Shown piece after piece: positions 18,001 through 52,637 of a stretch of DNA of 64,000 bases (positions are counted from its first letter, which is position 1; each line of letters begins with the position of its first letter). Below the pieces are notes generated by a model. That model saw nothing but the letters and a program-made list of their open reading frames with translations. It ran no database searches and had not been told where the DNA came from. The DNA lies in the IMG/VR virus record IMGVR_UViG_3300027808_000009, positions 53,920 through 117,919 of that record. One strand, 5' to 3'. Made by a program: the position numbers and the translations under genes. The DNA is from a virus.

Positions 18001-20314
18001 TATTGCAAGTCACTATGGTGGTATTAAAGTAAGATTGAGAAACCAATATGGTCAATTAGATTCTATTAAACAAATACCAATTACACCTTATGAACAAAAA
18101 TTTAGTTATAATGGTGAAAATATACCCAGGTCAAGAAGTTCATTTTACTGTACAATAAGTACTCCAAATGGAAATAGAAATGTTGAGGTAACTCTTAAAG
18201 TAATATCACAAACACCAGTATTCTTTGGTGGTGATACATATGTAAATAGATATACTGAAAAGAATAATATGTTCTTCTTCTATGACTGGTTGTATGGTCA
18301 ACCTGATGGATATGAATATAATTATATTCTAAGACACATGATTGCTGAACCTAGATTCTGGGCAAATAGTCAATTATATGATGTAGCAGATGCTACACCA
18401 ACATCTATTGCTGAGTTAATTGATCCTCCTCCGGGAACTGGTTATAAACCAACAAATTATTATAATTTAGACTATTATGTAGATGATAATAGAAAATATG
18501 ACTATTATGATGATAAACCAAAACCATTAAGTCCTAGTGATAACTATCCTGGAATATTTGGAGCTAAAAATTCATATTTCTATTTATCTAATTCATCAAT
18601 AAGAGATTTCTTTGTTGAGTCAGATGTATTAGTAGACTTTAGAGAACCTGGTACTGAAGTATGGGAACAACATTATGACCGTAATACTTATACAAATTTA
18701 CCTGCAATGTTTAATATGAATCCTGATACTATATCTAAAGGAAACTATTATGCATATGATTATTCATTAAGTATATCTAAAGTATTTACTCAATATTTTT
18801 CTCAAGGTAATTTACAATCAAGATATTACAATCCAATTGTATCTAACTTATGTTATACTTACTATCCTGATAGAGTTGTTTACTCATTGCCACAACAGAA
18901 TGAATCATCTAAAGATTCATGGTTTGTTTATCTAGTTAATAACTATAAAGAATTTAAAAATAGAATTACAAGTATAAAACCATATGCTAAAACTGGTATG
19001 TTTATTACATTCCAGAACTCTAGTCCATTAGTATATCAAGGTGTTGATACTCTTGAAACAGATCTAGGTACTAAACTTACTATAGGTGATGGTGGTTTAT
19101 TTGCAAATCCTCCTCAGAATGTAACTATATCTGATGTAGAATATGAATATGGTTCATCTCAAAATAAGTTTGGTGTAATTGCTACTCCAGCAGGTATGTA
19201 TTATATATCTCAAAATCAAGGAAGAGTATTTGCATTTGAAGGTGGTCTAAAAGAAATATCTCAACAAGGTATGAAATGGTGGTTTAGTTTATTCTTACCA
19301 TATAAACTTACTGAAGATTTTCCTGATTATCCACATACTGATAATCCTGTTGCAGGAATTGGTACACAAGCTGTATATGATAACTACAATGGAGTTATTT
19401 ATTTCTGTAAAAAAGATTATAAATTAAGAAATGATTTAACTCCAGGTACAATTGTTACTTATGATTCATACGGAGATTACTTTTTAGTTAATGGTCAAGC
19501 AAGAGTTGAGTTAGGTGATCCTCTTATATTTGAAAATGCATCGTGGACAGCAAGTTTTGACCCTAAGAGTGATTATTGGATTTCATATCATGACTGGCAT
19601 CCAGATTTTGTGTTACCTGCAAGACAATTCTTTATGACAACTAAAGAAGGTAGATTATGGAAACATAATGTAGCATGTAATAGTTACTGTAATTTCTATG
19701 GTGTTCAGCATCCATTTGAAGTTGAGATACCATTAATAACAGGACAAACAATTACTACTCTTAAATCAATGGAGTATATTCTTGAATGTTATAAAAATAG
19801 TCCAATAAATTGTATTGATCAGTATCATGTACTTGATTATAACTTTGATAAAGCAGTAGTATATAATTCTGAGCAAGTATCTGGATATTTAAATCTTAAT
19901 ATATTCCCTAAGAATAATATTACACTTGCTAATACCTATCCTAAAGTTAATATAACATCTATTGATGTACTATTTTCTAAAGAGGAAAACAAATATAGAT
20001 TTAATCAATTCTGGGATATAACTAAAAATAGAGGAGAGTTTCCTATAGGTTCTAATTACCCTCCTACTGGACCATTAGTTCCAGGCACAACTGTACTTGC
20101 TGGTAACTATACTCAAGAAGTAATATGGAATACTCAATCTAATGGTTATATTAAAACATTAAATACTACTAACTTAGATTATACTAAGAATCAACTTGAG
20201 AGAAAAAAATTCAGACACTATTTAAATTTCTTATATTTGAGCAAAGCTAATTCTCAAGATGTAAATATGATAGTTAAAATTAGTAATAGTAAAAATCAAA
20301 TATCACTCAGATAA
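15014..20314 (+). CDS. muzzle / tail stabilisation protein (P22 gp10-like position in crAss-like phages)
   Basis: 1766 aa; FVKGLNKD...WTHARNAVN N-terminus, beta-propeller-like composition, SWTASFD..WISYHDW motif. Confidence 0.75.
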   Translation: MAKKNIQDTSQNKTNTFVKGLNKDSDPTFVAEGMWTHARNAVNNTLEGNIGTLSNETSNVYCVEAGATLPGKKYIIGTIHLYSDKWIIFTVAYPTTGVGTPTGHEIGLFEEDRCTYRIIVQDDCLNFDKRNLITGASREKEDCSWGVYFADGKNPDRYLNIGDNDLWPSSDYAWIGNNKYGNITSGATMQWPGVQWKQLCHTDSGCQQVYPDEWPLGCPGANDCIICEDTTMLSCEDLRLARLMETPTIQVKPGVGGGVLRNGSYFAVLAYTIKGQRVTDYFSPSNTQPLWNVDDVASCIDIFISADNNHFEEFELVVVQIINQGAVAKRIGIYSTNTSVIHLDQIKDDLITIPIEQIPLRNIVYETSDQMTEVNDYLLRIAPRSKFDFNYQPLANQIQSQWTSVEYPANYYVQGGSNTNYLRDEVYTFFIRWVYNTGDKTSSYHIPGRVAGTFNGIPETQLTADQNSLSPDDRYFEVYNTATASAAPGTVLPDGGIVVAQGRMGYWESTEKYPDNRHDIWDASSQCWSGTTDPQFDLCGKYIRHHKFPDNITGGGNLTNHYSQGGQAIRLMGVVFNNIILPKDNDGNDIPGIVGYEILRGSREGNRSIIAKGMLNNMRTYELKGNDAGGRKGLYPNYPFNTITPLSSSIGGHVAGYNDPYIRLKDDVAQDIPLNMVTFHSPDTNFRTPFLSTTELKLYGRVSGTSTQFFQEPDQHPQFKLLADFVIIVAVIAGVIEMAIQNGGKWTIQQNGPVAATGGGDVSALAARPAAGVFQGVQAAYEIGLQAYFGLGGFLADSLVPFLNPALAVTNIQTIYDAATVVAATAGATSPLGNTYTKEIPRYQYAGLIGAGNFLQQSISYFAEGANTSIRLAYALIPYRQFALQSIAEGFYSNFNSPNYSQVQRFNIEDSFYLKNNIQNVKPFSGINYVINNLKRQTSVTLRTSSGSTVKVNNGPDYITGPGEDKSLVTLGTAIQAGIGLPVDMTDNKTNTFRLPIASHYGGIKVRLRNQYGQLDSIKQIPITPYEQKFSYNGENIPRSRSSFYCTISTPNGNRNVEVTLKVISQTPVFFGGDTYVNRYTEKNNMFFFYDWLYGQPDGYEYNYILRHMIAEPRFWANSQLYDVADATPTSIAELIDPPPGTGYKPTNYYNLDYYVDDNRKYDYYDDKPKPLSPSDNYPGIFGAKNSYFYLSNSSIRDFFVESDVLVDFREPGTEVWEQHYDRNTYTNLPAMFNMNPDTISKGNYYAYDYSLSISKVFTQYFSQGNLQSRYYNPIVSNLCYTYYPDRVVYSLPQQNESSKDSWFVYLVNNYKEFKNRITSIKPYAKTGMFITFQNSSPLVYQGVDTLETDLGTKLTIGDGGLFANPPQNVTISDVEYEYGSSQNKFGVIATPAGMYYISQNQGRVFAFEGGLKEISQQGMKWWFSLFLPYKLTEDFPDYPHTDNPVAGIGTQAVYDNYNGVIYFCKKDYKLRNDLTPGTIVTYDSYGDYFLVNGQARVELGDPLIFENASWTASFDPKSDYWISYHDWHPDFVLPARQFFMTTKEGRLWKHNVACNSYCNFYGVQHPFEVEIPLITGQTITTLKSMEYILECYKNSPINCIDQYHVLDYNFDKAVVYNSEQVSGYLNLNIFPKNNITLANTYPKVNITSIDVLFSKEENKYRFNQFWDITKNRGEFPIGSNYPPTGPLVPGTTVLAGNYTQEVIWNTQSNGYIKTLNTTNLDYTKNQLERKKFRHYLNFLYLSKANSQDVNMIVKISNSKNQISLR

Positions 20315-21852
20315 TGGGATTTAATAAAAAAGTATTATCTAAAGCTGTATCAGAATTAGGTAAAGCAAAAGCACCTGGTAAACCAAGAGATATAATAACT
20401 GATCCTGCTGGTCAATGGAAATACCCAGGTCAGAAAACCAGGATTCCTGGTAGTAGTATTACTATGCAAGGTGTTAATTATCCTGTATGGGCTCAACCTA
20501 ATGTTGGTCCTGGATCAATGATGCAACCTAATCAAGATTATAACTTTCCTGGTGCATCTTATGTAGATGAAACACCAATTGCTAGAAAAGGTGGTACTCT
20601 TAAAAGTCATAGATACTCAAAGAGCATGTCTGCTACTAATAAACTATTTACTAAGAATAGGTTGTTTAAAAACATGAAGAGTAAGATATTTGATCCTAAC
20701 TCTAAGTTTCAAAAAGGAGGTTCTAAATTGGGCCCTATTAATCTTGATCCTAATCCATTAAGTCACTATGAATTAAACTATGGTTTTAATCTACCTACAG
20801 AAGAAGACGGTGGAGAACCATATGCTGAAGAACTAGAGCTTACTGATGAAGAAATACAAGCATATAGAGATGGAGGTTATGTAGTAGAAGAAGTAGCTGA
20901 ATATAAAATAGGTGGTTATGTACAACATGAACTAGTTAAAGCTCAAAAAGGTCTTACTAAAAAACCATTAGAGATTGCTGATCCTAAAGAATTTGCTTAT
21001 AGAGATAGAGCTTATAAAGATAGTTTAGATATGTATAAGAATAATCTTCTTGCTACAAAATATTATGACTTAGCAAATAATCCAGCATATGAAGATGACT
21101 TTTTTATTAATGCAAAAAAGGGATCTACGTATATTGAAAAAATGAAAAAGATTAAAAAAAATTCTCCTGCAAAATTTAATAGTGTATTTGATAAACAAAA
21201 AAAACCAGTACAACCTGTTGTATTTAAAAATGGTATAACAAATATAAACTATACAAAATCTAAACTTACACCATCTAAAAAAGATGATTTTATTAGTATA
21301 CCTCAAAGAAAAAAAATTGAATCATTAAGCACTCAATTTGAAAAACAAAAAATTGATGATAGAATAATTACTGATACAGATGTAGTACCAGAAGGTTATA
21401 GAAGAATAGGTAATTTATATACTGCATCTCGTGATGAAAAAACTGGTAAAGTAACTGAGAAAGAAAAGTTTATGCATGAACTAATTCCTCATCTTAATAC
21501 AAGACCAATACAACAATTTGCATCTTCAGAGCAAAGTATTATACCAGGAAAACCATATGTTAAACCTAAACCTAATGTAGGACCAAGATATGGTACATTA
21601 GCTGGTGATGAAAATTTAGAATTACCAGCAGGTTATACTCAACAAGAAAGAGAAGCAGCTAGAAGACAAAGAGATGCTCAAGAATTTCAACGTAAAACTC
21701 TTGAGTACCAACAACAACAAAGAGGTAATTCTCCTGTTGCTCAAATGCGTAAACAAGGTGGTGCAATTACTGAATCTTGGGAAGATGAATTAGATGACCA
21801 TACTATAGAATTATTAAGAAAAGCAGGTTATACCGTTGAAGAACTTGATTAA
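20314..21852 (+). CDS. virion cargo protein
   Basis: 512 aa, no Cys seen; repeated xxGG motifs and two acidic helix-GY-strand motifs. Confidence 0.55.
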   Translation: MGFNKKVLSKAVSELGKAKAPGKPRDIITDPAGQWKYPGQKTRIPGSSITMQGVNYPVWAQPNVGPGSMMQPNQDYNFPGASYVDETPIARKGGTLKSHRYSKSMSATNKLFTKNRLFKNMKSKIFDPNSKFQKGGSKLGPINLDPNPLSHYELNYGFNLPTEEDGGEPYAEELELTDEEIQAYRDGGYVVEEVAEYKIGGYVQHELVKAQKGLTKKPLEIADPKEFAYRDRAYKDSLDMYKNNLLATKYYDLANNPAYEDDFFINAKKGSTYIEKMKKIKKNSPAKFNSVFDKQKKPVQPVVFKNGITNINYTKSKLTPSKKDDFISIPQRKKIESLSTQFEKQKIDDRIITDTDVVPEGYRRIGNLYTASRDEKTGKVTEKEKFMHELIPHLNTRPIQQFASSEQSIIPGKPYVKPKPNVGPRYGTLAGDENLELPAGYTQQEREAARRQRDAQEFQRKTLEYQQQQRGNSPVAQMRKQGGAITESWEDELDDHTIELLRKAGYTVEELD

Positions 21853-21912
21853 ACTTTTAATGTTTATTGAGTAAACCAAAAATTATTATATTTAATATAT
21901 ATTATACATTAT

Positions 21913-24609
21913 ATGAAAAAGAGAGTAAGAGTATATAAAGCAGGAGGTCAATCAAATGCAGTTTCTCAAGAACAACAGATTGAAGCATATCTTACACAAG
22001 AGATGTCAGCTGACACTTATGATGGTGATGTTGATGCATTAAAAGATAACCTACTTAATGCCGGTATTGATGAAGATGTTGCTGATGATTATATAACAAG
22101 TGTTAGTGATGATCTTGGTTTAAATCAAGATACTTTATCTACTGAAGAAGAACAACAACTTATTGCTCAACAAGAACAACTAGCTGCAGAAAAAAAACAA
22201 GCTTTATTAGAACAAGAAGCTGCTGCAGAAAAAGCAAGAAAAGCACAACTTGCTGCAATATATGATACTGATATTGATATGTCAACTACTGAAGATACAG
22301 CAGAAGATGAAGAAAACTATATGAGACAAGGTGGTACTAAACCTAGTAAAAGAAATTTTATAAAACAATATACTAAGTTTGCTAAAATGGCAAGAGGTGG
22401 TGATACACCTACTCCAGGTTCTAATGATGTACTTAATGGTAGAGAATCACATGTTAAAGGCTTTTTAGGAGCAGTTAAAAATACTGCCGATGAAGCAGCA
22501 ATGAGACAAGAAGCGGAAGCTCAATACAATTCTGCATATGGTGCTCCTCAAGTTGGAGCATTTCAAGAAGGTGGTATACATCAAGAAGAAATTGATCCTG
22601 AAAATCCATTACACCATTTAAGTACATATGGTACTGATACAAGACATATATTCTCTGATGATATGTATACTCAAAATGATGTTGCAGCAATGGAACAATT
22701 TGGAGGTAATACTGGTCAAGGTTTATATAAATTTATTGGTGGAGGAGATAATGAATCTGCTGATGAAGAATACCAAGATGCTGATATAGATTTCAATCAG
22801 GAACAATATCAAATGGGTGGATTCAAAATGCCAAAAAGATCAGGTAGACAATATACTCAAGCAGTTAGTTCACCTTACTATACAGCTACAGGTGAAAGAA
22901 CTCAAGCTCCTAATCTTGCAGGTAGACAAGTATCAAGTGTTAAAGTAACCGATAGAGGTATTTTAGGTAGACCAAAAGCCTATACAATAAACTATGGTAA
23001 TTCAAATACCACTGGATCTAATGCTACTCCACAAATTAAAATGCCTACTGAAGATCAAGCAAGAACACTTGATGCAAATGCTGCTAGTGGTAAAGATAAC
23101 TATGTACTTTCAAAAAATCTTGCTGATCAAATGTCTAATAAACAAGCAAGAAACAATAGACAACCAGTTGCTGATTGGATGATGAGATCTGGTATACCAG
23201 GTATTAAACAAATGGGAGCACATATGACTAGATCAGGTGCTATTCCTGAAATACCTCAAGGTACACAATCAAATGCAGCTCAAGCACCAGCAAGCAATAT
23301 GCCTTATTATCCTCCAATGACAGCACGTGCTCAAAGAAGAGAAGCAAGAGATGATAGTAAACTTAATAGATTTTTAGGTAACAATGAGGCTGATGTATTT
23401 AATGATCCAAAAGAAGTTGCAAGAATACAAAGAAGTAATCCAGGTTATGTACCCTTTGGTGAAGCAACTCCAAATGAAAATGCACCAGTACCAGTAAACG
23501 GTCAGTTAGATCCAAATGTAATGAGTGCTCTTAATGCAGGTAAAAATAACCCAGAAGTAAAAGCTAAAGCTAAATTAGAAGATAAAAAAGAAGAAGCAAA
23601 AGCAGTTGAACAAGAAGATGAAAAAGTTGATGCAGTAGTAAATCCGTTATTACAAGCTGAAAGTGTACAAGCTGCAATTGATAACAATACAGCAGGTGGT
23701 TTAAATAAAAAAGCATTAAACTATGATTATGCAAATGATCCTGGTGCTAAAGCATTTCAAAATAAATACCCATCTTTTAGTGATGGAAGTGATGGAAGAA
23801 ATGAAGAGTTTTGGTCTCAACAACAACCACAAGGTGCTAATAAATATTCTCCTGAGAAAGCAGCAAAAATGAAGGCAATGGGCTTAAACCCAGATATATA
23901 TGGTCATCATTATTTATATCAAAATCCTGATAAATTTAAAGAATACGGTGGTCCAGTAGATTATACAGAATATGCATATGGCGGTGATATTGCCGTACCA
24001 GAATTATATAGAGCACAACAGGGTATGCAAGTAGGTTTTGATCCTAATGCTAACAATATGAATATTAGCAATCTTCAAGGATTTTTTGATAAAGCACCTA
24101 CTAAAGATGTTGCTGGTAATGAAATAACTGCAACAGTTCCGGCAAACATGCAACCAGATAATATTACAATTGATCCAAATCAAGCTAATGCTGAATCAGT
24201 AACTGATCAACCAGATAATATTTCTCAAGATTATAAAATCAAAAAAAATTGGGGTAAAATTGGTAGTGATGTAGCTGATGTAGCTGCTATTGGTAAAGTA
24301 GGTCTTTTAGCTGGATTAGATACTCTTGATAAAATTAATGCAAGAAAACAAGAGAATCAAATGCTTGCTAATACAACTTCTGCCGAAGCTAATTATGGAG
24401 TAAGTAATATAAAAAAGAAAGGTGATTATGATCCTAACTCAGGTTTATTTAGACCAGATCAAATGGGTTCTAATGCAGTTGTTAAATATGGAGGTGGTAT
24501 TTATGCTATGGGTGGTAACACTGAAGATGAAGATGAGGATATTCAATACATGACTCAAGAAGAGATAGATGACTTCATGGCTAATGGAGGAGAATTAGAA
24601 TACTTATAA
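21913..24609 (+). CDS. virion cargo protein (acidic, largely disordered)
   Basis: 898 aa; more than ten [YFM]xxGG motifs; no Cys seen. Confidence 0.55.
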   Translation: MKKRVRVYKAGGQSNAVSQEQQIEAYLTQEMSADTYDGDVDALKDNLLNAGIDEDVADDYITSVSDDLGLNQDTLSTEEEQQLIAQQEQLAAEKKQALLEQEAAAEKARKAQLAAIYDTDIDMSTTEDTAEDEENYMRQGGTKPSKRNFIKQYTKFAKMARGGDTPTPGSNDVLNGRESHVKGFLGAVKNTADEAAMRQEAEAQYNSAYGAPQVGAFQEGGIHQEEIDPENPLHHLSTYGTDTRHIFSDDMYTQNDVAAMEQFGGNTGQGLYKFIGGGDNESADEEYQDADIDFNQEQYQMGGFKMPKRSGRQYTQAVSSPYYTATGERTQAPNLAGRQVSSVKVTDRGILGRPKAYTINYGNSNTTGSNATPQIKMPTEDQARTLDANAASGKDNYVLSKNLADQMSNKQARNNRQPVADWMMRSGIPGIKQMGAHMTRSGAIPEIPQGTQSNAAQAPASNMPYYPPMTARAQRREARDDSKLNRFLGNNEADVFNDPKEVARIQRSNPGYVPFGEATPNENAPVPVNGQLDPNVMSALNAGKNNPEVKAKAKLEDKKEEAKAVEQEDEKVDAVVNPLLQAESVQAAIDNNTAGGLNKKALNYDYANDPGAKAFQNKYPSFSDGSDGRNEEFWSQQQPQGANKYSPEKAAKMKAMGLNPDIYGHHYLYQNPDKFKEYGGPVDYTEYAYGGDIAVPELYRAQQGMQVGFDPNANNMNISNLQGFFDKAPTKDVAGNEITATVPANMQPDNITIDPNQANAESVTDQPDNISQDYKIKKNWGKIGSDVADVAAIGKVGLLAGLDTLDKINARKQENQMLANTTSAEANYGVSNIKKKGDYDPNSGLFRPDQMGSNAVVKYGGGIYAMGGNTEDEDEDIQYMTQEEIDDFMANGGELEYL

Positions 24610-24618
24610 TTTTGTATT

Positions 24619-27198
24619 ATGCACTTTAAAGTAAAAATAACTAAGAGATTACCACAAGCAAAATCGGGAGGTTTTACAGGTAACAATTTAAATAAACAAG
24701 TAATTAGTTTTGGTGGAGCTGACATGAATGCTGCATCAAGACATCTTGAAAATACAAGATACTTGAAACAAGTTCCAAGAGATGAAGCTAATCTAGAAGC
24801 TGAAGGTGGGGAAACCGCATTTGGTGATATCAATGGTGATGGATTCACTGAGCACATGCTTATTGGTGGTAAAAGACATAGTCAAGGTGGAACACCATTA
24901 AATTTACCTGATGGTACTTTTATCTTTAGTGATACAGCTTCTATGAAAATTAAAGACCCGGAGATACTTGCTAAGTTTGGTAAAAAATCTGGTTCATTCA
25001 CTCCTGCTGAATTAGCTAAACCATATGATATCAATAAGTATAGAACTATATTAGAAGATCCTAACTCAGATAAAGTAGATAAAAAAACTGCTGAGTTAAT
25101 GATTAAGAATATTAATCTTAAACTTGGTGCATTAGCATTAGCTCAAGAAGCTAAAAAAGGTTTCCCTCAAGGTATACCAGAAGTTGCAAAACCATATATG
25201 GAAGCAATGAAAATTAGTGAGGAAGATTTAATACCACAAAAACTACAACCTGAAGCTGAGATGAATGCACAAGCAATGCAGAATCCATATGAAAACCAAG
25301 GTATGGGTATGCAGTCTCCTGAAGAAGAATCTATGGAGCAAGTTCAAGGTATGCAGAATCCTCAAGAAGAAATGATGGAAGTACCTCCTATGGCTCAATA
25401 TGGTATAATGACAGGTGATTATAGTTATCCTGGACAACAATTATACAGAAACGGTGGTTCACTAGATAGATATCAAAGTAAAGGTGAAGTAAAATCAAAA
25501 GTTTACAGTAAAGATAACTTACCTAAAGATGCCGTTGTAAGAGAAAGAATTACTACTGATACTAGAGCCGGTGACTATGTTAAACAAGAAGATGGAACAT
25601 ACAAGAAAGTAACAGTAGCAACACTTGGTAAAACTCCTACTGCAGATACAAAGTCTTTAGGTATATCAGTAGAAGAATATAAAAAAGAATCTCCTGAGAA
25701 TGCTAAATTAATTGAAGACGCAAATGCAATTATTGCTAAAGGAATCCAAGCTGGTGGCATCACTACAGATAAAAAAGGTAATGTAAAAATTACAGGTAAG
25801 TGGGATGGTAACTTTAGAGATAGAGTAACATTATCAAGAGCTCTTAATGCTACTAATGCTAAAGGTGTATTTGGTACTGATAAATATAAAGTTGTTAGTC
25901 AAGGTGCAACAGGCCCTTATTCTAAATTAAACAATGGTAAACTTAAAGGTTCTGGTTCATTTGTTGCAGGATTTACTCCTGACTTATATGAACAAAGATT
26001 CATATATGAGCAAGCTAAAGGTTTAGGTATGACAGATGATGAAGCATTTGATGAAACAGACCGTATACAAAAAGATCCTAAATTAAAAGCACAAGCTAGA
26101 AGACAATTTGCAGGTACCCTAGGAATCAAAGATGTACCAGAAGATGATAAAGCATTATTATCAGAAGACTTCTATAAAAAGAATTACGCTGATGTTACAA
26201 AAGGTATTGAAAATTCATTAGGTGAAGGTGACTATAGACCAGCAATTGGAGATGAACAATTAGCAGGATTTGAGCATTTTGATGCAGTAGGTGGTAAACC
26301 TGAGTTTCAATATGAAAATGAAGCACCTGTAACTGAAGATGAAATAGCAAATGAAGAAGCTGCAGTAGCAGAAGAACAACAATATCCAGAAGCAGGAAAT
26401 CCTGAATGGTGGTTACAAGATAAAGTAAACATGGGACTTGCTGCTAGTGATTATTTTGATGTACAAAAAGCTTTACCATGGGCTGCAAGATATGAACCAG
26501 AAATGATGTCTCCTACATTTTATGATCCAACAAGAGAATTAGCTCAACAATCTGAACAAGCAAATATTACTAACAATGCAATGTCTCAATTCTTAGGACC
26601 ACAAGCTGCATCTGCAAGATCATCATCAGTACAAGGACAAGGAGCTAAACAAGCAGCTGATACTCTTTCTAGATACAATAATCAAAATGTAGGTGTAGCA
26701 AATCAATTTGAAGGTAACAATGCTCAAATAATGAATGAAGCACAAAGATTTAATCAAGCACAGAATAAACAATTATATGATCAAAATGTAATTGCTAATC
26801 AACAGTATAAAAATACTAAACGTGCATTTAAACATAACCTTGGTGAAGCATTTAACACTGGTACTACTAATATGATGAAAACAGATGCAATGAATCAGAT
26901 GTATCCTCAATATGCAGTTGATCCAAGAAGTGGCGGTAGAATGCATTTTACTAAAGGTAAAGTAGGTAAACCTGAACTTGCAACATCATTTGATTCATTA
27001 GTACAAAAATATATGGGATCTCCTTATTATATGGAAGGAGCAGATGCCATTAAAGCAGCTAAAACAGCTTCAGGATATTCAAGTGGAACTGATGGTGTTG
27101 ATCCAAATATGATAGCAGCTCAGTATGGTAAAAAAGGTGGGACAACTCAAATGGGATATGTAATGGGTTCTAATGTATTCCCTTTCCAGTTTACTTAA
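24619..27198 (+). CDS. virion cargo/ejection protein
   Basis: N-terminal NLEAEGGET...GGKRHSQGG..L.LPDGTFIFSD domain characteristic of crAss-like cargo proteins; Q/N-rich helical C-terminus. Confidence 0.6.
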   Translation: MHFKVKITKRLPQAKSGGFTGNNLNKQVISFGGADMNAASRHLENTRYLKQVPRDEANLEAEGGETAFGDINGDGFTEHMLIGGKRHSQGGTPLNLPDGTFIFSDTASMKIKDPEILAKFGKKSGSFTPAELAKPYDINKYRTILEDPNSDKVDKKTAELMIKNINLKLGALALAQEAKKGFPQGIPEVAKPYMEAMKISEEDLIPQKLQPEAEMNAQAMQNPYENQGMGMQSPEEESMEQVQGMQNPQEEMMEVPPMAQYGIMTGDYSYPGQQLYRNGGSLDRYQSKGEVKSKVYSKDNLPKDAVVRERITTDTRAGDYVKQEDGTYKKVTVATLGKTPTADTKSLGISVEEYKKESPENAKLIEDANAIIAKGIQAGGITTDKKGNVKITGKWDGNFRDRVTLSRALNATNAKGVFGTDKYKVVSQGATGPYSKLNNGKLKGSGSFVAGFTPDLYEQRFIYEQAKGLGMTDDEAFDETDRIQKDPKLKAQARRQFAGTLGIKDVPEDDKALLSEDFYKKNYADVTKGIENSLGEGDYRPAIGDEQLAGFEHFDAVGGKPEFQYENEAPVTEDEIANEEAAVAEEQQYPEAGNPEWWLQDKVNMGLAASDYFDVQKALPWAARYEPEMMSPTFYDPTRELAQQSEQANITNNAMSQFLGPQAASARSSSVQGQGAKQAADTLSRYNNQNVGVANQFEGNNAQIMNEAQRFNQAQNKQLYDQNVIANQQYKNTKRAFKHNLGEAFNTGTTNMMKTDAMNQMYPQYAVDPRSGGRMHFTKGKVGKPELATSFDSLVQKYMGSPYYMEGADAIKAAKTASGYSSGTDGVDPNMIAAQYGKKGGTTQMGYVMGSNVFPFQFT

Positions 27199-27263
27199 AC
27201 TTTCCAGGTTTAGTAAACTTATAAAATTTTAATATATTTACAGTATAGACAAACATTAACATT

Positions 27264-36804: not shown

Positions 36805-36815
36805 ACTAATTAAAT

Positions 36816-45800: not shown

Positions 45801-48800
45801 ATTAAAGTAAATGATCCGGAGCAAAACAAAGAGATATCAGACATGTTTAAAATGTTACCTCTTATGTCTATTCTACAAAATGGAGTAGGTAGTACTAAAT
45901 ATGGTTTAAGTTATGTCTTACCAGATACTACATTCTTTGAAATAATAGAGCCTGCATCAAGAGAATTTTTAGCTTTAGATTCTGAGTCAAAAGATAAAAC
46001 ATTAGATATAATAGATAATTTATTATTTGAAAATGGTGTTGGTCAAAATAATTATATTTTATCAAGAGCTTCACGCAAAGCTTCTAACATAAAAGATACA
46101 GATGTTGATATAGAAGTTGAAAATGAAAAATATGTACCTAAAGGTGTAGGATTTGCTGGTGGTCAAGGTATGACTTTTGGTGCTAAACCGTCTACTAGTG
46201 TTAATAGTAATGATATATATTCTCAATTAGAAAATAAAAATGTAGTTATTTCTAACATTAAAACTAAAGATGGTAAATATGATAGGGATGCTAATATAAA
46301 AGAAGCAAAAGCTAATAATAGAGTTTATACTATGGAAATGGTTAGTGATATAAATAGTTTTAGTAATCCTTGGGCTCATTTTATTAGAACAGGTACTATA
46401 AAAACTAATACTACCAAAGAAGCAGTTATAAATTATATTGATTGGTTAACTACTGATAAATTTAAAGATGTTAAACCAAAAAGAAAAGCATTTATTCTAG
46501 ATGTTTTAAAATCAGGTAAATTAAAAGGAAGACAACTGCAATATTATGCAGAACTTGGAGAACCGTCTCATGCTATAGCTTTAGATTATTTAATTAATAA
46601 ATATGATTGGAATACTCAACAACAACAAGATGTTACAAGTAAAATTAATTTTGAAGAAAATCAAACTGGTGGTTATCCAGCTAGAACTAGAATTAATGCT
46701 TCTGCTGATGCAACAATACATATAGCAGATAACTTTGAAACTCCTGGTGAAAAGCTTACTGAAAAATCTGTAAAAGAACAAGGTAAGGTTTATAGAGCAA
46801 TAGAAACAAATGGTATACCTTTGAATGCAATTAGTAAAGATACTGTGTCATTAGCAATCAATAATATTGTAAAAATATTAAATACTGTAAATGCAAAAAG
46901 TTTAAATATTGCAGGGAATGGTATATATGATATGAAAGGCCGTACTCAAGAAGAAGTTGATAAATTTACTTATGACTTACTAAATGGTATAGTTAATTCA
47001 CCAAACCTTAAAAACAAAATCACATTAATAAGAAGTGGTGGTCAAACAGGATTTGATGAAGCAGGTGCAAAAGCGGGTATGAAATTAGGTATCCCTACTA
47101 CAGTATTAGCACCAAAAGATTGGGAGTTTAGAACTAATGAAGGTAATGTTAAAAATGAACAAGCTTTTAAAGCTAGATTTAATACTCAACAACAAGCTCC
47201 AGTTAATATAAAAACAATATCTGAACCATATGGTGTTGTATCAGTAGAAACTAATCCAACTGATTCTAAAACAAAAGAGTTTATTAGTTTACTACAACCA
47301 CAGATTAAAAAACAAGCTTATCAAGAAAATGTAACTGGTAATAAAATGTTTATGTATGGTTTAAGATGGACAAGAAAAGGTAAAGCTACTAAACCATTAA
47401 ATAATAAAAGCTATGCTAATAAGGGATTACCAATTACTGATGCATTAGCAACTGATGGTTATGTTTATGATACTGTAGATCAAAATGGAAATCAATTAGC
47501 ACCTCTTTCAAATTTACAACCAATTATAAATGAGATACAAAATACATTAGGTATTGATATGTCAAATTATGATGCTGTAATTGGTAATATTTATTTGCCG
47601 GGACAGAGAATTGCAACTCATAGAGATACTACTGAAAGTTTAAGTGCTAGAAATTATCCTGTAGTAGTTTATACTATTGGTGCAGGTAACGCTATAAATA
47701 TTTATGAAAATCAAAAAACACCTGGTTCTGCCTCATTTGCTTCTGACAAGAAAACATCAATACCTACTCAAAATGGTAGTATATACACCTTTGGTATGGG
47801 TGGTAAAGGAAGATTTGAATTAGGTCATGATACTCCACATGCGATTCAGAAAGGTGATACCTTAATACCTATTACAATGCCTGACGGTACAGTGATTAAA
47901 GACTATACTATTACACTTACATTTAGAAGAGCTGCTGACTTAGAACCAGGAATGCCAACAGCACCTGTTAAAATATCTACTCAATCATCTACTAGTGTTG
48001 AAGCTAAACAAGAAAGAATAAAAAAAGTAATTCCAAATACTATAGTTGATAAATTAAAGGGTTATACATTTAATTTACAAGAACTAAATAATGTTAAAAA
48101 GATATTTGAAAATACAAATCCATTTAATACAGATCCATTAGATTCAGAAACTATAAAAGATGGAAGAGTTTTTGAAGATCCAGGTCTTAGAGAGTATGGA
48201 ATGAGTGATCAACAATATAGTTGGGCAAAAAATAATGAACCTATATTGAGTAAACTTAATGAACTATTATACACTGATGAGTACTCAGCAATAAATTTTG
48301 AGGACTTAGTCTCTATGTTAATTGATGATAATACAAAGTTAGTAGATACTGCACAGACTAGTTTATTTGATGATGAATCTATTCAACAACAAGCTCCAGT
48401 AACTGAAGTTAAAGAAGAAAATAATACTGTTACATATAAACCTACAGGTAAAGAAAAACAAACTTATACTGTTTTAAATAATCAGATCTTTAATAAAAAT
48501 GGTGATGAAGTATTTAAAGAAGCTAGTGTAGACAGAAATAAAATCCTTGCTAATCTTGCAGTTAAAGAAGGTAGAGCAGTTATAGTAGAATATAAAACAT
48601 ACACAAATAAAGAAGGTGTTGATGTACCAGCTAAATACGTTGTTAATAATAAAGATGTAATTATATCTGTTAGAACAGGTGATATAATGAAATGGCCTGA
48701 GAATAATGGTGATAGAAAAGCTGTCATTGCTCTTGCAAAAGCTGCATTTGCTGAAGCTGCCTCTGAAGAACCAGAGATAACTCAAGACATGGAAGCATTC

Positions 48801-49166
48801 AATGCTGAAGTAACTAAACAAGGTAAGTTACCTACAGAGTTTATAGTTGATCAAAGAAAATGGGTATTAAATAATATGAAACTTTATGATCTAGTTGACA
48901 AATCTACAGGTATGATGTTTATGAAAAACATGAATATGTTTACAGGTGCTCAAGTAGAAGAAATTCCATCTAATAAACCAGTTAATAGAAAACAATTAAT
49001 TAACTTTGAGAAACAATTAGCAAGTGGTATTACAAGTTACAAATTAGATCAAATACTTGCAGTTAAAGGAATAAGTGTTGATGATATATATAATGATATT
49101 AGGAATATTACAACTCAGAGTCAATTGAATGATAAAATAAATAAAATACTTAAAGCAATATGTTAA
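36816..49166 (+). CDS. virion-packaged single-chain RNA polymerase (crAss-like vRNAP) with zincin and accessory domains
   Basis: 4116 aa; DLYHEAWH zincin motif (~39300), AVRIPVQ and catalytic GADFDVDK (43764-43781) as in phi14:2 gp66-type RNAPs; C-terminal DUF4326-like, SLOG-like and AlkB-like domains. Confidence 0.9.
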   Translation: MNITCALTKTQIEKLFAKIYRDLFDSLNDNKSVDVKSYMQTLFNTIESKSDADKAATFLQNVPSLLHTAIGDYSLARLEIDDSSIRPLINKFLNPETGLLDVLQYFRPKDIIKEIQNDVNIKNNSINSPKFTEDADVPVSPRYKASSAFTTTMQQFITRDPNNNLTIEEIDPNKVRIYNTLEKLKKAFNSKDNSVLNPKYQGRLLKLKGVRLDSVAASLDKTTAALLVKANSIKKKGGVNFLEDAIILMVTDEFGTPINFSKEGDITSKEEGGKPVYQFLRNVTVDEETGDYTIKDIYGKEERIQSVEDQITNYGSSIYGTKSLNEFKQVLEAEGESYDDLYNDLKQQQQADFKALLDVHKEILKEKEKLFDIMDVSAGIPLDFTGGNMPLNDFLKLTDNLNTNYKFTTLRTERDDIKAGNTVISINDYEIPVDRKNMSADLINKIAAALVSSKMDGREKYAFYDQFSHNNINFDDKKLFVVYKPESGLEVSYKEDTKNPKREIVDLTNKEIAKAIIIKALGTERGTASKPYSANMKINADLLEKSTQFFDYDLLKDEPVEASYREFLSKVNPTVKFKNNEPGVYNSYFAFRVNDNLSKELKKAKEKVQEKTYTTDSYIRQAKDALLLKLTENKNISGTVTGSVTKTTFIIQVDGKSVQGRFEEGLSITSVPTNYTVRFSVGEAIVDGKRITDVISIYAGDKKIGQVSETDYKAGEKPRTYEDAKIADEKVINPIDVPQPSDKKGKRSGISKLWDRSSKLPSDVTREEVDAAQEWWENSPLSKFIELEHMANIVNSDVYARFIISGKRLEDTKIQLDTATGGSAVDLYHEAWHAFSQLYLTKDQKTKLYAETRKRLNNNDLTPLEVEEIIAEDFRTYAKNPKPTGDAPIRNTLFRKIWNFIKALFGKRNTKDELFKELFFASKNPKLLNKYAPLVDNAMFDILNRDRGILNVETKELELSFQDSMTVSSQIDSALSELIDEIYTDRVEREKQGEVGKNNVPIKATRNGTISLLTNDKDKAIAYQAIYERFEDNLTYFQDQLDTVDEDDYNKVTLLTDKIRILKAAIDNWGDSKSGVVKFHIDNSTFDLIKQNYIEIEAEDEVDEDDDNTSPETAKESEQFANKEVGDKSLLQLAEKETLYIIKSLFKIADGKQVMGKLGFPELADFSKTWNIVTKVIGGEKDPVKMYEKLVAGIKSFPELKQLIENKIPDPREIHNIEEFNIKAAFWQDFKKTKLKYLQLTVDNPDGTEYKSEVTEASIEFTNVINKFKSEFKASPKSTYINKGDDNKSILNLDKVIADFDDKSFDSRKSIQFARAIGINLQDLSALKTELDNNKDDYGIQYLFNVTKSIHKISKDPNASTEHKKFIKKFLSDPIGALYGEIPKGIYKDVTSEKNIIQKLAKLQSAFGTNYSSFSVLNPEKNLVNEFIEDNTVSMIVDAINNVSTGNALWTSDEYQYMSYLNPEINGFTLQSQILKSIFEYSNNTLNERKGDAKIELAMVAGSQIVDEKGANTTSLDVQSKYIQELNMMLKGGIVEFMRHASKSSSFGMRLANSVSGGLGKADPNSRLYVDIDMFGPNGNADQYAVNNIFIGYIQAELTRIQKFKGNKELFKQYNGYNRNVGTEENPIYAGEQFTAFDNVLKDFTTTINDKETTTDLKQYLIDNVKDGDLKNYLKSNPEIKKAITEQVTKYFNGQTDKNYKQFSESPFYDPALMNKLNVFTTLEKEDKHKLLVKAYTMNAWIHNFETASLVYGDIVQYNHAKQELHKRNTGSTSGGRGFMDDIYTQQFLNSDLIKKSSYAFKLANKAGYGADYNTFNYSNKYNTAILQDVSRDSVYIDHIEKTLRADYIKRGVAKDVIEYRLKKELKAYTNMEEGDGQGFIAIDAYRNLRLAEKSWSADQEKLFQDIINEKEIKAEDVVRFFPVYKLQHFGHLANTMLPVNAMHKFALMPLIPSMIKGSDLESLHHQMMKGNIQYATFQTGSKTGGVTSQLDKNGKAVADQIYDDKGVEKTLKSDIKFTPNTIYLANLKNVTAVPTKYKGKTVFSTQLRKLILEGLYQDGEIVNKDYAPYIKAYETAIKDYTDLLKTELLEEIGYEKVNGKYVSGDISKFMDVVQRELERKDLPEHLIKYIQVGKDNKITKDLSLHLLADDIEKILVSLVEKRIVKQKVKGEALVQVASSMSNGLWDSGFKFDKANTKDIEKYLGSNNLPFYYPGEDGKTTAMKVAIALQGDFKNLLKLNHIDKKPIGTRERLNEMIKNDEWLNKGNNRKAITMTAVRIPVQGLNSMEFMEVYEFLDPSAGNIIIPPSEIVAKSGADFDVDKLTTFMPNIDAEGHYIETSMDAKKLETQINAAKKSGDKGEMKRLIKMQKAALENRLIDSIRGILELPDNYATLVRPNDTYLLKDIADELVNSSPEYKEFKTISPTNVLEVGYNLHKHEANMIGKDVLGIIALENALHPLLTSLGAALPKTYKHQTWDDENKRYVEVPEIDYEMRLLLNHNKTNDGRISLSKINSSDNQDKIADLISHLMNGSVDVEKDAWIFFIQANKEIVPVLLSLLKAGVPKREAIYFVSQPLVKEYARQQRLIGSAFANVTENGVLPNENEKYIALQNTLAVSGISFRYPYLSRDASNLKMFDALKATKDKVKVKFKDNSFKVFAPKELLKAIANNTIKKNNISDIYNAVVKYKLDEEGNPELDPYTGDKIQIPLYKKVRASHLLSNDNWYYVTQVLTKDVNKFSEAELKTNIDNNDFISDSAIRAFLHFIEFEKEIKGLSNLKRQANPDTKTSKTIQEVTQKSLSLEEAADSSKIEPELARKLQDESILGTFFDKMIITDIVSPLFNVTNNKNVSDHMVKTITRKGGQITTKFGEGKDGVEAYITAYKNAIVNYIYQNKLNNIITTEESFPGIPESFTDIDSKEYIDNFMIMLSEHSHLKELYPILEQITDIPVKSKKKTAVGTETIYTATLTLNNKSAVKGALAEAYHQNLVDLADDNIIKVNDPEQNKEISDMFKMLPLMSILQNGVGSTKYGLSYVLPDTTFFEIIEPASREFLALDSESKDKTLDIIDNLLFENGVGQNNYILSRASRKASNIKDTDVDIEVENEKYVPKGVGFAGGQGMTFGAKPSTSVNSNDIYSQLENKNVVISNIKTKDGKYDRDANIKEAKANNRVYTMEMVSDINSFSNPWAHFIRTGTIKTNTTKEAVINYIDWLTTDKFKDVKPKRKAFILDVLKSGKLKGRQLQYYAELGEPSHAIALDYLINKYDWNTQQQQDVTSKINFEENQTGGYPARTRINASADATIHIADNFETPGEKLTEKSVKEQGKVYRAIETNGIPLNAISKDTVSLAINNIVKILNTVNAKSLNIAGNGIYDMKGRTQEEVDKFTYDLLNGIVNSPNLKNKITLIRSGGQTGFDEAGAKAGMKLGIPTTVLAPKDWEFRTNEGNVKNEQAFKARFNTQQQAPVNIKTISEPYGVVSVETNPTDSKTKEFISLLQPQIKKQAYQENVTGNKMFMYGLRWTRKGKATKPLNNKSYANKGLPITDALATDGYVYDTVDQNGNQLAPLSNLQPIINEIQNTLGIDMSNYDAVIGNIYLPGQRIATHRDTTESLSARNYPVVVYTIGAGNAINIYENQKTPGSASFASDKKTSIPTQNGSIYTFGMGGKGRFELGHDTPHAIQKGDTLIPITMPDGTVIKDYTITLTFRRAADLEPGMPTAPVKISTQSSTSVEAKQERIKKVIPNTIVDKLKGYTFNLQELNNVKKIFENTNPFNTDPLDSETIKDGRVFEDPGLREYGMSDQQYSWAKNNEPILSKLNELLYTDEYSAINFEDLVSMLIDDNTKLVDTAQTSLFDDESIQQQAPVTEVKEENNTVTYKPTGKEKQTYTVLNNQIFNKNGDEVFKEASVDRNKILANLAVKEGRAVIVEYKTYTNKEGVDVPAKYVVNNKDVIISVRTGDIMKWPENNGDRKAVIALAKAAFAEAASEEPEITQDMEAFNAEVTKQGKLPTEFIVDQRKWVLNNMKLYDLVDKSTGMMFMKNMNMFTGAQVEEIPSNKPVNRKQLINFEKQLASGITSYKLDQILAVKGISVDDIYNDIRNITTQSQLNDKINKILKAIC
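46191..48400 (+). repeat. intragenic linker repeats in the vRNAP gene
   Basis: TCTACTAGTGTT at 46191 and 47988; AATACTCAACAACAA at 46611 and 47181; TCAACAACAAGCTCCAGT at 47186 and 48383. Confidence 0.75.
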
Positions 49167-52100
49167 CATGCCCAATTAAAACTAGTCAAGAGTATCAAGA
49201 TATTCTTAAAGAAGCTAATGGTAATGAAGAAAGAGCACTAGAATTATGGACAGAACGTGGATATAATTATGATGCAGATTTAAATGAGTATAAAGAAACT
49301 GAACCTGCAACAGGTATAGATCCAGAAGATACTAGAGATGATAAATTGTCAGCTCTTGTAGATAGAATGCGTCTATATGTAAGCAAGGAGATAAAAATGT
49401 TTGAGGGTAGAAAAGTTAAAGATCAAGAGGTTTTTAAAAAGAAAAAAGAAAAACTACTTGAGACTCTAAAAGCATTAGATGGTGTTGACTCAATTAATAT
49501 GTTTGTTAAAGATGCATATGAACAAGCACTACATGCTAAAAAAAGATTTGATTTGATATTAAGCAATGTTGGTTCTGAAGACGGTAAAGATATATTAAAT
49601 GAGTTAGCATCAATAAATGAATTTGCTAATGGATACTCTATATTAGATGAGATAAATAAACAAGATATATACAATTTTTTCTCTGCTGGAAAAGATGAAA
49701 GAGAACCTGGTACAAATATGACCGCACAGGATATGCTTTCAGATGCTGTTACAATAAGAGATAATATTAAGAAAAAATATGTACAAGTAGGTATTCCATT
49801 GATGGCTGAGTGGTTGTTACAATACCAAGCAGAAGGTATTGAAGATAAAGTATTACCACATCTTGAAACATTAAAGAAAAGATTAGATGAGCTTAAAGCT
49901 TCTACTAATTTATCTGAAAAGAAAAAAGATAAAGAAATTGCTAAACTAGAAGATGCAATTAATACATGGCAAAACTTTTCATTAGATAAAAAATCTCTTG
50001 TAGACTTATTAACTAAAGCTAGTCAAGATGAAGGTGTAATAGATTTCTTAATTAGTCCATTAATATCATCAAATGATCAATCACTTGGATTATTTGCAAG
50101 AGCTGTTAAAACTGAATTAGAAATTGCTAGACTTACTGATATTGATGTTAAAAGATTAGCAAGTGTAGAATTTGATAAATACAAAGATGCTCAATCAGCT
50201 AGTCAAAATAATCCTGCAAAATTTAATGAAGGTTTATATGAGTTTTTAGATTTTACTAAAGAGAAAAGTGATGGTACTGTTGAAGTAACACAAAGAGCAG
50301 CCTTTGTTCAAAAGCATGATATTAATAAGTTTAATGCAGCTAAGAAAAAAATGTATGCTTCTCTTGCTGGTTTATCTGATGCTGAACAAAAAAGAGTGAA
50401 AAATGATTGGTATAGCAATAATACTGCATCAAAAAGTCAAGAGGAAATAGATAAGATAAAAGCAGCTAAGTTAAAATTAAAAAATGGTAAACTAATAACT
50501 AAAGAAGAATATGAAGCTTGGTTAGACAGTGTAGAGGTAATTGGTAAAAATGGTAAAGTATATTATAAAGGTGAGTTAAGTGAGCCATCAATAGATTATA
50601 TAAACTCAAATTGGCAAGCTTTATATGATAAGGATGGTAAACCAAAAAATGCTAAAGGTGAATATCATAAATATTTAGTTGATATGTATCTTGAAGCTCA
50701 AGAGAGATTACCTGATGTACAAAAAAAAGGATATTTATTACCATCAATACTTAAAACTGATCTTGAAAGATTTCAGCAAAATGGTGGAAAAGATTTAGCA
50801 AAATATAAATTTAAAGAAGCAACATCTATTACAACAGATGATGTAGATTATGCATTAGGTGATTTATCTGAACAAGGTACTAAGTTCTTACCTGTAGATT
50901 ATACACGTAATATGGATGCTAAGGATGTAAGTTTAGACTTAGTAAGATCTGTATTAATATTTAACTCAATGACTAATAAATATGAAGCATTGAATAAGAT
51001 AGGTAATGAGATTAATATGTTTAAAACTATTATTGGTGAAAGAGAAATAACAGCAACTAATTCAAAAGGTAAACCAATCTTTGATGCTTTTGCTAAAAAA
51101 ATTGGTTTTACTGAGTTTTTAAGACAGAATGGTGAAAGTTATTCTAAAAGACACGTTGATGCATTTATAGATATGGTTGTATATCAAGAAATGCAAAGAG
51201 CTGAAGAAATACTTGGATTTTCAGGAGGTAAAATTACTAATACCTTAATGGGGTTTTCAGCTATTACAAGTATTGCAGCTGATGTATTAAAAGGTGTTGC
51301 TAATAACTTACAAGGTAATATTCAATTAATTATAGAAGCTAGTTCAGGTGAATTCTTTTCTGTCAAGAATCTTCATACTGGTAAAAAAGAATTTGCTAAA
51401 GCTGTACCAGATTTATTTGCTGATTTTGGAAAATCTTCACCTAAATCATGGGTTGGTAAGATGATTGAAGAATTTGATCCAATGCAAGGTGAGTATAAAG
51501 ATCAGTATGGTAAAAATGTATCACAATCAGCAGTAATTAAACTAATGAGAACAGACACATTATTCTTTAACCAGCATTGGGGTGAATATGAAATACAAGT
51601 ATCTTCAATGTTTGCATTGATGGCAGCTACAAAAACAATAGATAAAGATACTGGAGAAGAAATAACTGTACTTGATGCATATAAAAAATATGGTCCAGAA
51701 GGTATATATGATAATACAGAATTTACATCTAAGAAAAGATTTGATTTACAGAATAAACTACATGCATTAAGTAAAAGATTGCATGGTGTATATAATAACT
51801 TTGATAAAGGTACTGTCCAAAGATTTTCATTAGGTAGACTAGGGTTAATGTATAAAAAACATTTGGTACCAGGATATAAAAGAAGGTTTAAAAAAGCATC
51901 AATGGATCAAGAGTTAGGTAGTCCTGTTGAAGGTTTTTATAGAACCTTTAATTCTACTATGATAAAAGATATAAAACAAATGAAGTTTAATGTAGCTAAA
52001 AACTGGTCAACATATTCTGATTTTGAAAAAGCACAAATAACAAGAACATTAACTGAGTTAACTATTATTTTAACTTTAGCAGGATTATCAGCAATATTAG

Positions 52101-52459
52101 CTTATGCTTTTAGTGGAGATGATGATGATGATGAGGCAGTAAGAAAAAGTTATGCATATAATTTTTTAATGTATGAGTTAATTAGAATGCGTAGTGAAAC
52201 TGCAAGTTATATTTGGCCTGGTGATACAATGCGTATTATAAAGTCACCATTAGTTATTACAGGTACACTTGAAAGAACATTACGTCTGGCTAACCAAATA
52301 TTACCTTGGCATATTTCAGAAACATACAAGAGAGATACTGGTATATGGGAAAAAGGAGATAATAAAGCTTGGGCATATTTCTTAAAACTTATGGGTTTTT
52401 CAGGAAATAATATTGATCCAGCTGAAGCAGTTAAAGGATTTGAAAACGTAACAAGATAA
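49160..52459 (+). CDS. large ejection protein, third gene of the vRNAP cluster
   Basis: 1099 aa, helical; hydrophobic C-terminal segment ELTIILTLAGLSAILAYAF; overlaps the RNAP stop codon. Confidence 0.6.
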   Translation: MLTCPIKTSQEYQDILKEANGNEERALELWTERGYNYDADLNEYKETEPATGIDPEDTRDDKLSALVDRMRLYVSKEIKMFEGRKVKDQEVFKKKKEKLLETLKALDGVDSINMFVKDAYEQALHAKKRFDLILSNVGSEDGKDILNELASINEFANGYSILDEINKQDIYNFFSAGKDEREPGTNMTAQDMLSDAVTIRDNIKKKYVQVGIPLMAEWLLQYQAEGIEDKVLPHLETLKKRLDELKASTNLSEKKKDKEIAKLEDAINTWQNFSLDKKSLVDLLTKASQDEGVIDFLISPLISSNDQSLGLFARAVKTELEIARLTDIDVKRLASVEFDKYKDAQSASQNNPAKFNEGLYEFLDFTKEKSDGTVEVTQRAAFVQKHDINKFNAAKKKMYASLAGLSDAEQKRVKNDWYSNNTASKSQEEIDKIKAAKLKLKNGKLITKEEYEAWLDSVEVIGKNGKVYYKGELSEPSIDYINSNWQALYDKDGKPKNAKGEYHKYLVDMYLEAQERLPDVQKKGYLLPSILKTDLERFQQNGGKDLAKYKFKEATSITTDDVDYALGDLSEQGTKFLPVDYTRNMDAKDVSLDLVRSVLIFNSMTNKYEALNKIGNEINMFKTIIGEREITATNSKGKPIFDAFAKKIGFTEFLRQNGESYSKRHVDAFIDMVVYQEMQRAEEILGFSGGKITNTLMGFSAITSIAADVLKGVANNLQGNIQLIIEASSGEFFSVKNLHTGKKEFAKAVPDLFADFGKSSPKSWVGKMIEEFDPMQGEYKDQYGKNVSQSAVIKLMRTDTLFFNQHWGEYEIQVSSMFALMAATKTIDKDTGEEITVLDAYKKYGPEGIYDNTEFTSKKRFDLQNKLHALSKRLHGVYNNFDKGTVQRFSLGRLGLMYKKHLVPGYKRRFKKASMDQELGSPVEGFYRTFNSTMIKDIKQMKFNVAKNWSTYSDFEKAQITRTLTELTIILTLAGLSAILAYAFSGDDDDDEAVRKSYAYNFLMYELIRMRSETASYIWPGDTMRIIKSPLVITGTLERTLRLANQILPWHISETYKRDTGIWEKGDNKAWAYFLKLMGFSGNNIDPAEAVKGFENVTR

Positions 52460-52463
52460 AACA

Positions 52464-52598
52464 ATGACAGGTAAAACAACAGGAGGAGCAGGAGCTTCAT
52501 CAAAAATATCAAGACCAGGTATTCATGCTAAAACTAAAACATCTAAGCTGAAAAGCTCAAAGTTTTATAAAAAAGCTAACCGCGGTCAGGGTAAGTAG
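52464..52598 (+). CDS. 44-aa basic peptide, not in the ORF track
   Basis: MTGKTTGGAGASSKISRPGIHAKTKTSKLKSSKFYKKANRGQGK; ATG after AAAACA leader, TAG just before the terminator. Confidence 0.65.
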   Translation: MTGKTTGGAGASSKISRPGIHAKTKTSKLKSSKFYKKANRGQGK

Positions 52599-52637
52599 GA
52601 AAAAAAAAGGGAGAACCGTAGTGGCTCTCCCTTTTTT
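52599..52637. terminator. bidirectional Rho-independent terminator between the convergent gene blocks
   Basis: A8-GGGAGA...TCTCCC-T6: A run before and T run after the stem. Confidence 0.85.

Follow-up and report, generated by a model that had tools for sequence, protein, structure and literature searches.

Conserved cysteines at the facing ends of three giant Crassvirales cargo proteins point to a head-to-tail chain

How is a protein cargo of over half a megadalton, the polymerase that initiates infection among it, packed into a virus particle and injected in order? The question is raised by a block of giant genes in a virus genome of 117,919 bp (IMG/VR record IMGVR_UViG_3300027808_000009, complete by CheckV). 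The stretch analysed, called hereafter the window, comprises 64,000 nucleotides (positions 53,920–117,919 of the record), and feature coordinates are given in window numbering. Three giant proteins are encoded there on the + strand: A (2205 amino acids (aa), 30187..36804), B (4116 aa, 36816..49166), which consists of the virion RNA polymerase with an N-terminal extension and C-terminal accessory domains, and C (1099 aa, 49160..52459). Their only cysteines lie at the ends that face each other. For the cultured crassvirus crAss001, the structure paper names packing and mutual interactions as what probably determines the order of the cargo. Comparison with relatives strongly supports a more specific arrangement, in which the facing cysteines would join the three giants head to tail.

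Terminal cysteines in the window genome and in its relatives

Listing and translation of the open reading frames (ORFs) revealed, on the + strand, a 1766-aa muzzle protein followed by four proteins of 512, 898, 859 and 978 aa, and then by A, B and C. Given the muzzle, the polymerase and the homologies of A and C described below, these genes form the cargo/ejection block of a divergent Crassvirales phage. The seven consecutive cargo proteins amount to 10,667 aa and contain four cysteines (0.037%). Among the other ORFs of the genome, 362 of 23,225 residues are cysteines (1.56%), which predicts about 166 in the cargo proteins; their cysteine frequency therefore lies far under the proteome level, as it does in the ejection proteins of Schitoviridae. 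The four residues are Cys2204, the penultimate residue of A (codon 36796..36798), Cys5 of B (36828..36830), Cys4116, the last residue of B (49161..49163), and Cys4 of C (49169..49171), all on the + strand; the other four proteins have none. An earlier reading made from the letters alone, called here the sequence-only reading, had reported this distribution. Translation of the ORFs bore out all its counts and coordinates in the seven proteins, and a computational count found no further internal cysteine in A, B or C.

Base composition was ruled out as the cause of the depletion. The cysteine codon TGY was counted 4 times in frame 0 of the cargo genes, 112 times in frame 1 and 660 times in frame 2, against about 111 in-frame occurrences expected from position-specific base use. 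With the lowest local background (0.9%) as reference, the probability of four or fewer cysteines is still <1e-35, and four cysteines would fall by chance into the four 5-residue windows at the facing ends with a probability of ~1e-12. The final cysteine codon of B overlaps the ATG of the C gene (ATATGTTAA), the two sharing TG. This overlap was likewise rejected as the cause of the last cysteine of B, as relatives keep a cysteine at −2 to −5 without overlap. In crAss001, moreover, gp47 is encoded on the strand opposite gp50 and gp49, so that the cysteine pattern is a property of the proteins and not an effect of gene overlap. The pattern is neither chance nor a gene-overlap artefact.

Conservation of the terminal residues was then counted in the best 120 homologues listed for each of the three families. 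For A, 117 of 120 homologues (32–91% identity) have exactly one cysteine, located in the final 1–6 residues. For B, cysteines are present at both ends (residue ~3–6 and the last 1–9 residues) in 106 of 120 homologues (31–100% identity), and 103 have only these two; all but one of the remaining B homologues have a single cysteine and are apparently truncated or mis-started. In 44 aligned homologues of B, C5 and C4116 are invariant. For C, a cysteine at residue 3–6 was found in 118 of 120 homologues (42–93% identity), 108 of which have no other. At the outer ends of A and C, the family listings never show a cysteine. IMG/VR, scanned with profiles as a guide, yielded 66 distinct loci. All 62 complete A proteins among them have a cysteine at the end (the sole one in 58), and 58 of the 60 B proteins adjacent to A have one at the start. 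The two B exceptions correspond to a poly-A frameshift (L017) and a mis-called start (L030); exception P0015 is a contig end, and P0044 a frameshift whose 164-aa continuation ends ...LDCQ. Every exception that was traced is an assembly or gene-call artefact. In L017, a run of ten A residues (~16790–16810) shifts the frame ~50 codons into the polymerase gene, and could be either a sequencing error or a slippery site.

The same arrangement was found in cultured phages. In phi14:2, the only cysteine of g067 is its last residue, g066 has Cys3 and Cys2179 (of 2180 residues), and the only cysteine of g065 is Cys3. In crAss001, gp47 has one cysteine, Cys2339, at −3, gp50 has Cys5 and Cys2404 (of 2412 residues), and the only cysteine of gp49 is Cys5; apart from an internal Cys1334 in gp50, the 1-2-1 pattern is kept, even with gp47 on the opposite strand.

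For the four smaller cargo proteins, depletion was uneven among relatives. The 978-aa family has no cysteine in 62,054 aa (60 of 60 positional homologues). At the position of the 898-aa protein the frequency is 0.09%, often as one close pair, and at that of the 859-aa protein it is 0.55%, with only 13 of 55 counterparts free of cysteine. The strict purge thus holds for A, B, C and the 978-aa family; the idea of a cysteine-free cargo was correct for all four upstream proteins of the window, but not for the 859-aa family, most members of which carry cysteine clusters. In loci L020–L094, most counterparts of 24619–27198 have CxC-x(15-17)-CxC clusters, with 4–12 cysteines; in the clade of the window the clusters of the 859-aa type are lost, or just Cys114/Cys124 are left.

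Fusions, a moved break point and a docking model

If the cysteine pair links A to B, it should be dispensable when the two are fused and should follow the cut between them when this moves. Fusion of A and B into one protein of 4,300–4,950 aa was found in cr118_1, cr50_1, cr52_1 and cr113_1 (Suoliviridae) and in cr108_1 (Steigviridae). The fusion junction was located tightly, with phi14:2 gp66, in cr118_1, cr50_1 and cr113_1, and loosely in cr52_1 and cr108_1. No cysteine was present within ~250 residues of the mapped A|B junction in the first three, and no cysteine pair was seen at the loosely mapped junction of the other two. The N-terminus of the fused proteins has no cysteine either, and the cysteines of the B end (−2 to −4) and of the C start (3–6) are retained. 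In some phages, all three proteins form one polyprotein (10.1101/2020.03.07.982082).

Two features of the fused genes were noted in passing. In cr108_1 (L009, 21824–22115) the gene is broken by ~290 bp, for which an intron, a frameshift and an assembly error are all conceivable, and a 798-aa continuation with the usual C-terminal cysteine follows. In cr52_1 and cr113_1 (L010 and L011), in-frame TAG codons are numerous in the late and cargo genes, reaching 73 in a single gene, which indicates TAG recoding in these Loutivirinae.

The position of a zincin-like module revealed that the cut itself has moved. In the window genome this module lies in the N-terminal extension of B (HEAWH, aa 829–833, 39300..39314, + strand). 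In crAss001 it is part of A instead, close to the C-terminus (HEAFH at 2157 of gp47), and residues 2049–2212 of gp47 are matched by the B profile (E 1.5e-9). The two lineages thus differ by ~900 residues in the place of the A|B cut, and each has its cysteine pair exactly there. Loss of the pair at fusions and its tracking of the cut are both predicted by a link across the cut. Residues Y828, H829, E830 and H833 are invariant in the 44 aligned B homologues. A delivered metalloprotease of this kind might act on the chain itself, by processing it, or on the wall of the host.

The A–B junction was modelled as a complex of B 1–450 and A 2056–2205, each with an alignment of relatives. The interaction prediction score from aligned errors (ipSAE) was 0.64, and 0.00 for the best of three controls. 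The mark used for this score is reached by 58 of 80 solved complexes and by 2 of 110 mismatched pairs, and is a rough guide here, where own alignments were used. Contacts agreed between runs by at least 43%, and the predicted local distance difference test (pLDDT) of the partner was at least 64. The interface takes in B 1–18 and A 2201–2205, hence both cysteines. The model supports docking of the A C-terminus on the B N-terminus.

The disulfide chain and its alternatives

Head-to-tail joining is favoured because the terminal cysteines are conserved in three families, because the pair is lost at fusions and follows the moved break, and because of the complex model and of an equivalent arrangement in cyanophage A4. 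From these data we infer a disulfide chemistry, a role in threading and a reductive release. As to mechanism, a disulfide chain A-B-C behaving as one threadable polypeptide is the most likely one, and we consider it rather probable. Inside the particle, A would dock with its C-terminal end on the N-terminal helices of B, and B with its own on the N-terminus of C. A single cysteine pair per junction, each member within 6 residues of its chain end, would oxidise to an intermolecular disulfide, giving a linear thread A-S-S-B-S-S-C of ~7,400 residues. With links at the extreme ends, such a thread would act like a single unbranched polypeptide and could be pulled, partly unfolded, through the narrow channel of the tail, its members in fixed order and in a 1:1:1 ratio. 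The purge of other cysteines would avoid mispairing with the four designated ones, and would ensure that neither internal loops nor oxidases of the host periplasm block the passage. The reducing host cytoplasm would then cut the links, and the three proteins would separate. Disulfides have been found in the tail and in gp57 of purified crAss001 virions (PMC10172136), which we count in favour of this chain.

Several points weigh against the disulfide chain. The chain is a prediction from sequence comparison and modelling. Searches of the window genome found no thioredoxin or glutaredoxin, so that oxidation would need to be spontaneous after lysis; in the Erv1 search of the genome, the control itself had no match anywhere. 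Gut crassviruses mostly live in oxygen-free surroundings. Internal cysteines are tolerated in small numbers in some B lineages, as with Cys1334 of crAss001 gp50, and the fused Suoliviridae proteins hold 2–7 of them. The top-scored contacts of the docking model do not name the Cys5–Cys2204 pair; the model thus speaks for the meeting of the two ends (0.64 versus 0.00) and not for the bond itself. Finally, the A4 precedent is an analogy and not a homology, the A4 proteins having no sequence similarity to the cargo proteins studied here. Of the bridges proposed in the sequence-only reading, head-to-tail joining is thus backed by conservation, fusions, the moved break, docking and A4; the choice between disulfide and metal, the purpose and the release are conjectural.

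Other roles for the cysteines were weighed against the same data. They could bond to other partners, either their own kind (A-A, C-C, B rings or polymers) or the portal, capsid or muzzle, and so anchor the cargo in the particle. Which cysteines pair is undecidable from sequence alone, the portal, muzzle and tail proteins are rich in cysteine, and the crAss001 tail is rich in disulfides (PMC10172136). However, the 1-2-1 counts are exactly those of a chain, with no cysteine ever at the outer end of A or C; moreover, no pair is found near the fused A|B junctions, the pair follows the moved break, and in the docking model the A end meets the B start with a score that the controls do not reach. We therefore regard such anchoring as unlikely. 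A metal ion such as zinc, held by the facing cysteines together with nearby acidic or other side chains in a tight non-covalent head-to-tail clasp, would be served by the comparative evidence equally well. It would suit assembly in the reducing cytoplasm, and an acidic residue often adjoins the C-terminal cysteine of A (...LDC, ...LEC, ...NICE). Each junction nevertheless offers two thiols only, with no conserved histidine or second cysteine nearby, and the same design in phage A4 was resolved as a disulfide, which makes the clasp distinctly unlikely.

The cysteines might also act only after ejection, by periplasmic oxidation, by acylation or as a redox switch of the polymerase, with no link in the particle. 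The N4 polymerase joins host membranes after ejection (PMC11445570), and the crAss polymerase has been described as requiring activation (10.1101/2020.03.07.982082), but this would leave unexplained why the pairs face each other, are absent near fused junctions and track the break. A cysteine at residue 3–6 also leaves no space for a lipoprotein signal peptide, and a lipoprotein signal was ruled out on this ground; a purely post-ejection role is very improbable. The least credible account is that the pattern has no function, arising by chance, from a low-cysteine composition or as a by-product of the start/stop overlap. The TG shared by the last cysteine codon of B and the next ATG in the window would fit it. 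It is already refuted, as judged from sequence conservation: in addition to the ~1e-12 chance of such placement, the cysteines are kept in hundreds of homologues at −1 to −9 without overlap, and also where the genes lie on opposite strands.

The disulfide chain, if correct, may be extended to the whole order, a proposal that we make tentatively and with less confidence. The Crassvirales polymerase and its two partners would form a linear thread stitched by reducible disulfides, in which cuts drift or close by fusion and each cut has its cysteine pair. Reduction in the host cytoplasm would free the parts and switch on an auto-inhibited polymerase, making a redox-timed injection device general to the order. 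A conserved cysteine pair per junction would give a concrete mechanism for order, stoichiometry and release, and would explain why fusions and splits among the giants are freely tolerated. The terminal-cysteine rule could also serve as a simple marker of cargo chains and of true protein ends in metagenomic crAss genomes.

The gene block and its relation to known ejection systems

All genes of the block are on the + strand. The muzzle protein (1766 aa, 20 cysteines, 15014..20314; Pfam PF25731 crAss_MUZ, E 4.9e-24) marks its start, directly upstream of the cargo genes as in other Crassvirales. The four proteins that follow, of 512 aa (20314..21852), 898 aa (21913..24609), 859 aa (24619..27198) and 978 aa (27264..30200), are candidate cargo proteins by their position, the 512-aa one lying after the muzzle like crAss001 gp45/gp46; it had no match in Pfam or PHROG. 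Protein A is a relative of crAss001 gp47 (A-family profile, E 4e-22) and occupies the position of phi14:2 g067, which was not detected by the A-family profile. It contains a PD-(D/E)XK nuclease-like segment (aa 1568–1639, 34888..35103; Pfam PF12705, E 2.7e-4, just short of the cut-off), in which D1575, D1585 and D1590 are invariant. This segment, in the first member of the putative chain, could be a nuclease delivered on entry.

Protein B matches the catalytic virion RNA polymerase of phi14:2, g066 (tblastn, E 8e-18), and its profile matches both g066 and crAss001 gp50. The DFDVD catalytic motif (aa 2317–2321, 43764..43778) corresponds to the DFDxD motif named in the phi14:2 preprint (10.1101/2020.03.07.982082), the two-barrel core being homologous to phi14:2 gp66; D2317, D2319 and D2321 are invariant in the 44 aligned homologues. 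Pfam detected cpYpsA SLOG and AlkB-like domains near the C-terminus of B, and gave no support for the label DUF4326-like used in the sequence-only reading. Protein C is the counterpart of phi14:2 g065 (phmmer, E 7e-38) and crAss001 gp49 (E 3.7e-58). The polymerase is thus flanked by relatives of the known partners, gp47 on one side and gp49/g065 on the other, g067 alone escaping the A profile. PDB sequence searches with A, B and C gave no match, and six of the seven cargo proteins had no PHROG family; the sole PHROG match was that of B aa 3275–3448 to phrog_10774, of unknown function. Presence of the cargo proteins in the virion is known by mass spectrometry for phi14:2 and crAss001; by homology, those of the window genome would also be packaged and ejected.

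Upstream of the block, the tail and fibre ORFs are rich in cysteine (mean 2.6%, up to 8.5%), as the sequence-only reading had noticed for exterior virion proteins. The extreme case is a 597-aa ORF (6783–8576) with 51 cysteines (8.5%), which ends ...NCGCGCNS and had no Pfam or PHROG match; adjoining fibre-like ORFs have 2.7–5%. A 414-aa protein (11328–12572) has two Fib_succ_major matches (PF09603, E 7.9e-64). A role in receptor binding is probable, and the protein hints at a Bacteroidota or Fibrobacter-type host. Four more cysteine-free proteins, of 418–633 aa, are encoded outside the cargo block, at 29243–31144, 50005–51261 and 51294–52910 of the genome (C1) and at 329–1618 of the window.

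In the cultured crassviruses, g067-g066-g065 of phi14:2 and gp47-gp50-gp49 of crAss001 also sit after the muzzle gene, and share with the window block the DFDxD core in B, the kinship of C with g065/gp49 and of A with gp47, and the 1-2-1 terminal cysteines. They differ from it in the length of B, which at 4116 aa is about twice that of its cultured counterparts, the extension carrying the zincin module (found in gp47 in crAss001) and the C-terminal accessory array (cpYpsA SLOG, AlkB-like). The number of candidate cargo genes between the muzzle and A also varies, with four in the window, two in crAss001 (gp45, gp46) and three in phi14:2 (g070-g068). The crAss001 atlas does not mention the terminal cysteines of gp47, gp49 and gp50, nor does the phi14:2 preprint mention cysteine, and full-text literature searches found no paper describing a terminal-cysteine rule for Crassvirales.

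Depletion of cysteine in ejected proteins had already been described in N4-like phages. In the ejection operon of Schitoviridae (N4 gp50, DEV gp71-gp73), cysteine is suppressed, with 0.00075% in DEV-type gp71 homologues versus 0.865% in the proteome, and the suggestion is cited that ejected proteins must cross an oxidising periplasm (PMC11445570). T7 gp15 and gp16 have no cysteine. Like the window block, these systems have nearly cysteine-free co-ejected proteins and, in Schitoviridae, a giant virion polymerase. Unlike it, they have no conserved facing terminal cysteines: a complete absence of conserved cysteines marks the Schitoviridae type, whereas conserved terminal ones are present here. 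The polymerases also differ in kind: that of N4 is single-subunit and T7-like, and is not related to the two-barrel enzyme of crAss phages.

The closest parallel is cyanophage A4, whose published structure removes the claim that a head-to-tail disulfide would be without precedent. Cryo-electron microscopy resolved a disulfide between gp27 Cys1715 and gp26 Cys5 (PMC12002296), and in the A-4L genome the two proteins, of 1717 and 1114 aa, have no other cysteine. In A4 (Anabaena phage A-4L), gp27 thus has its single cysteine three residues from the C-terminus and the next protein has its own at residue 5, the same placement as Cys2204 (of 2205) of A with Cys5 of B, and Cys4116 (of 4116) of B with Cys4 of C. 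The C-terminal helix of gp27 docks on its partner, with the disulfide seen; the crassvirus counterpart is a docking model only. Comparison of A4 gp26-gp29 with the crAss proteins by phmmer and profile searches gave nothing significant, and the window chain would therefore function like the A4 pair while standing outside the A4 family. The A4 system has two proteins, one link and no polymerase; here there are three proteins and, as proposed, two links. The A4 paper (PMC12002296) does not frame the disulfide as a general chain rule. With cysteine-poor ejection proteins and the gp27-gp26 link already known, the terminal-cysteine rule in Crassvirales is a variant of both.

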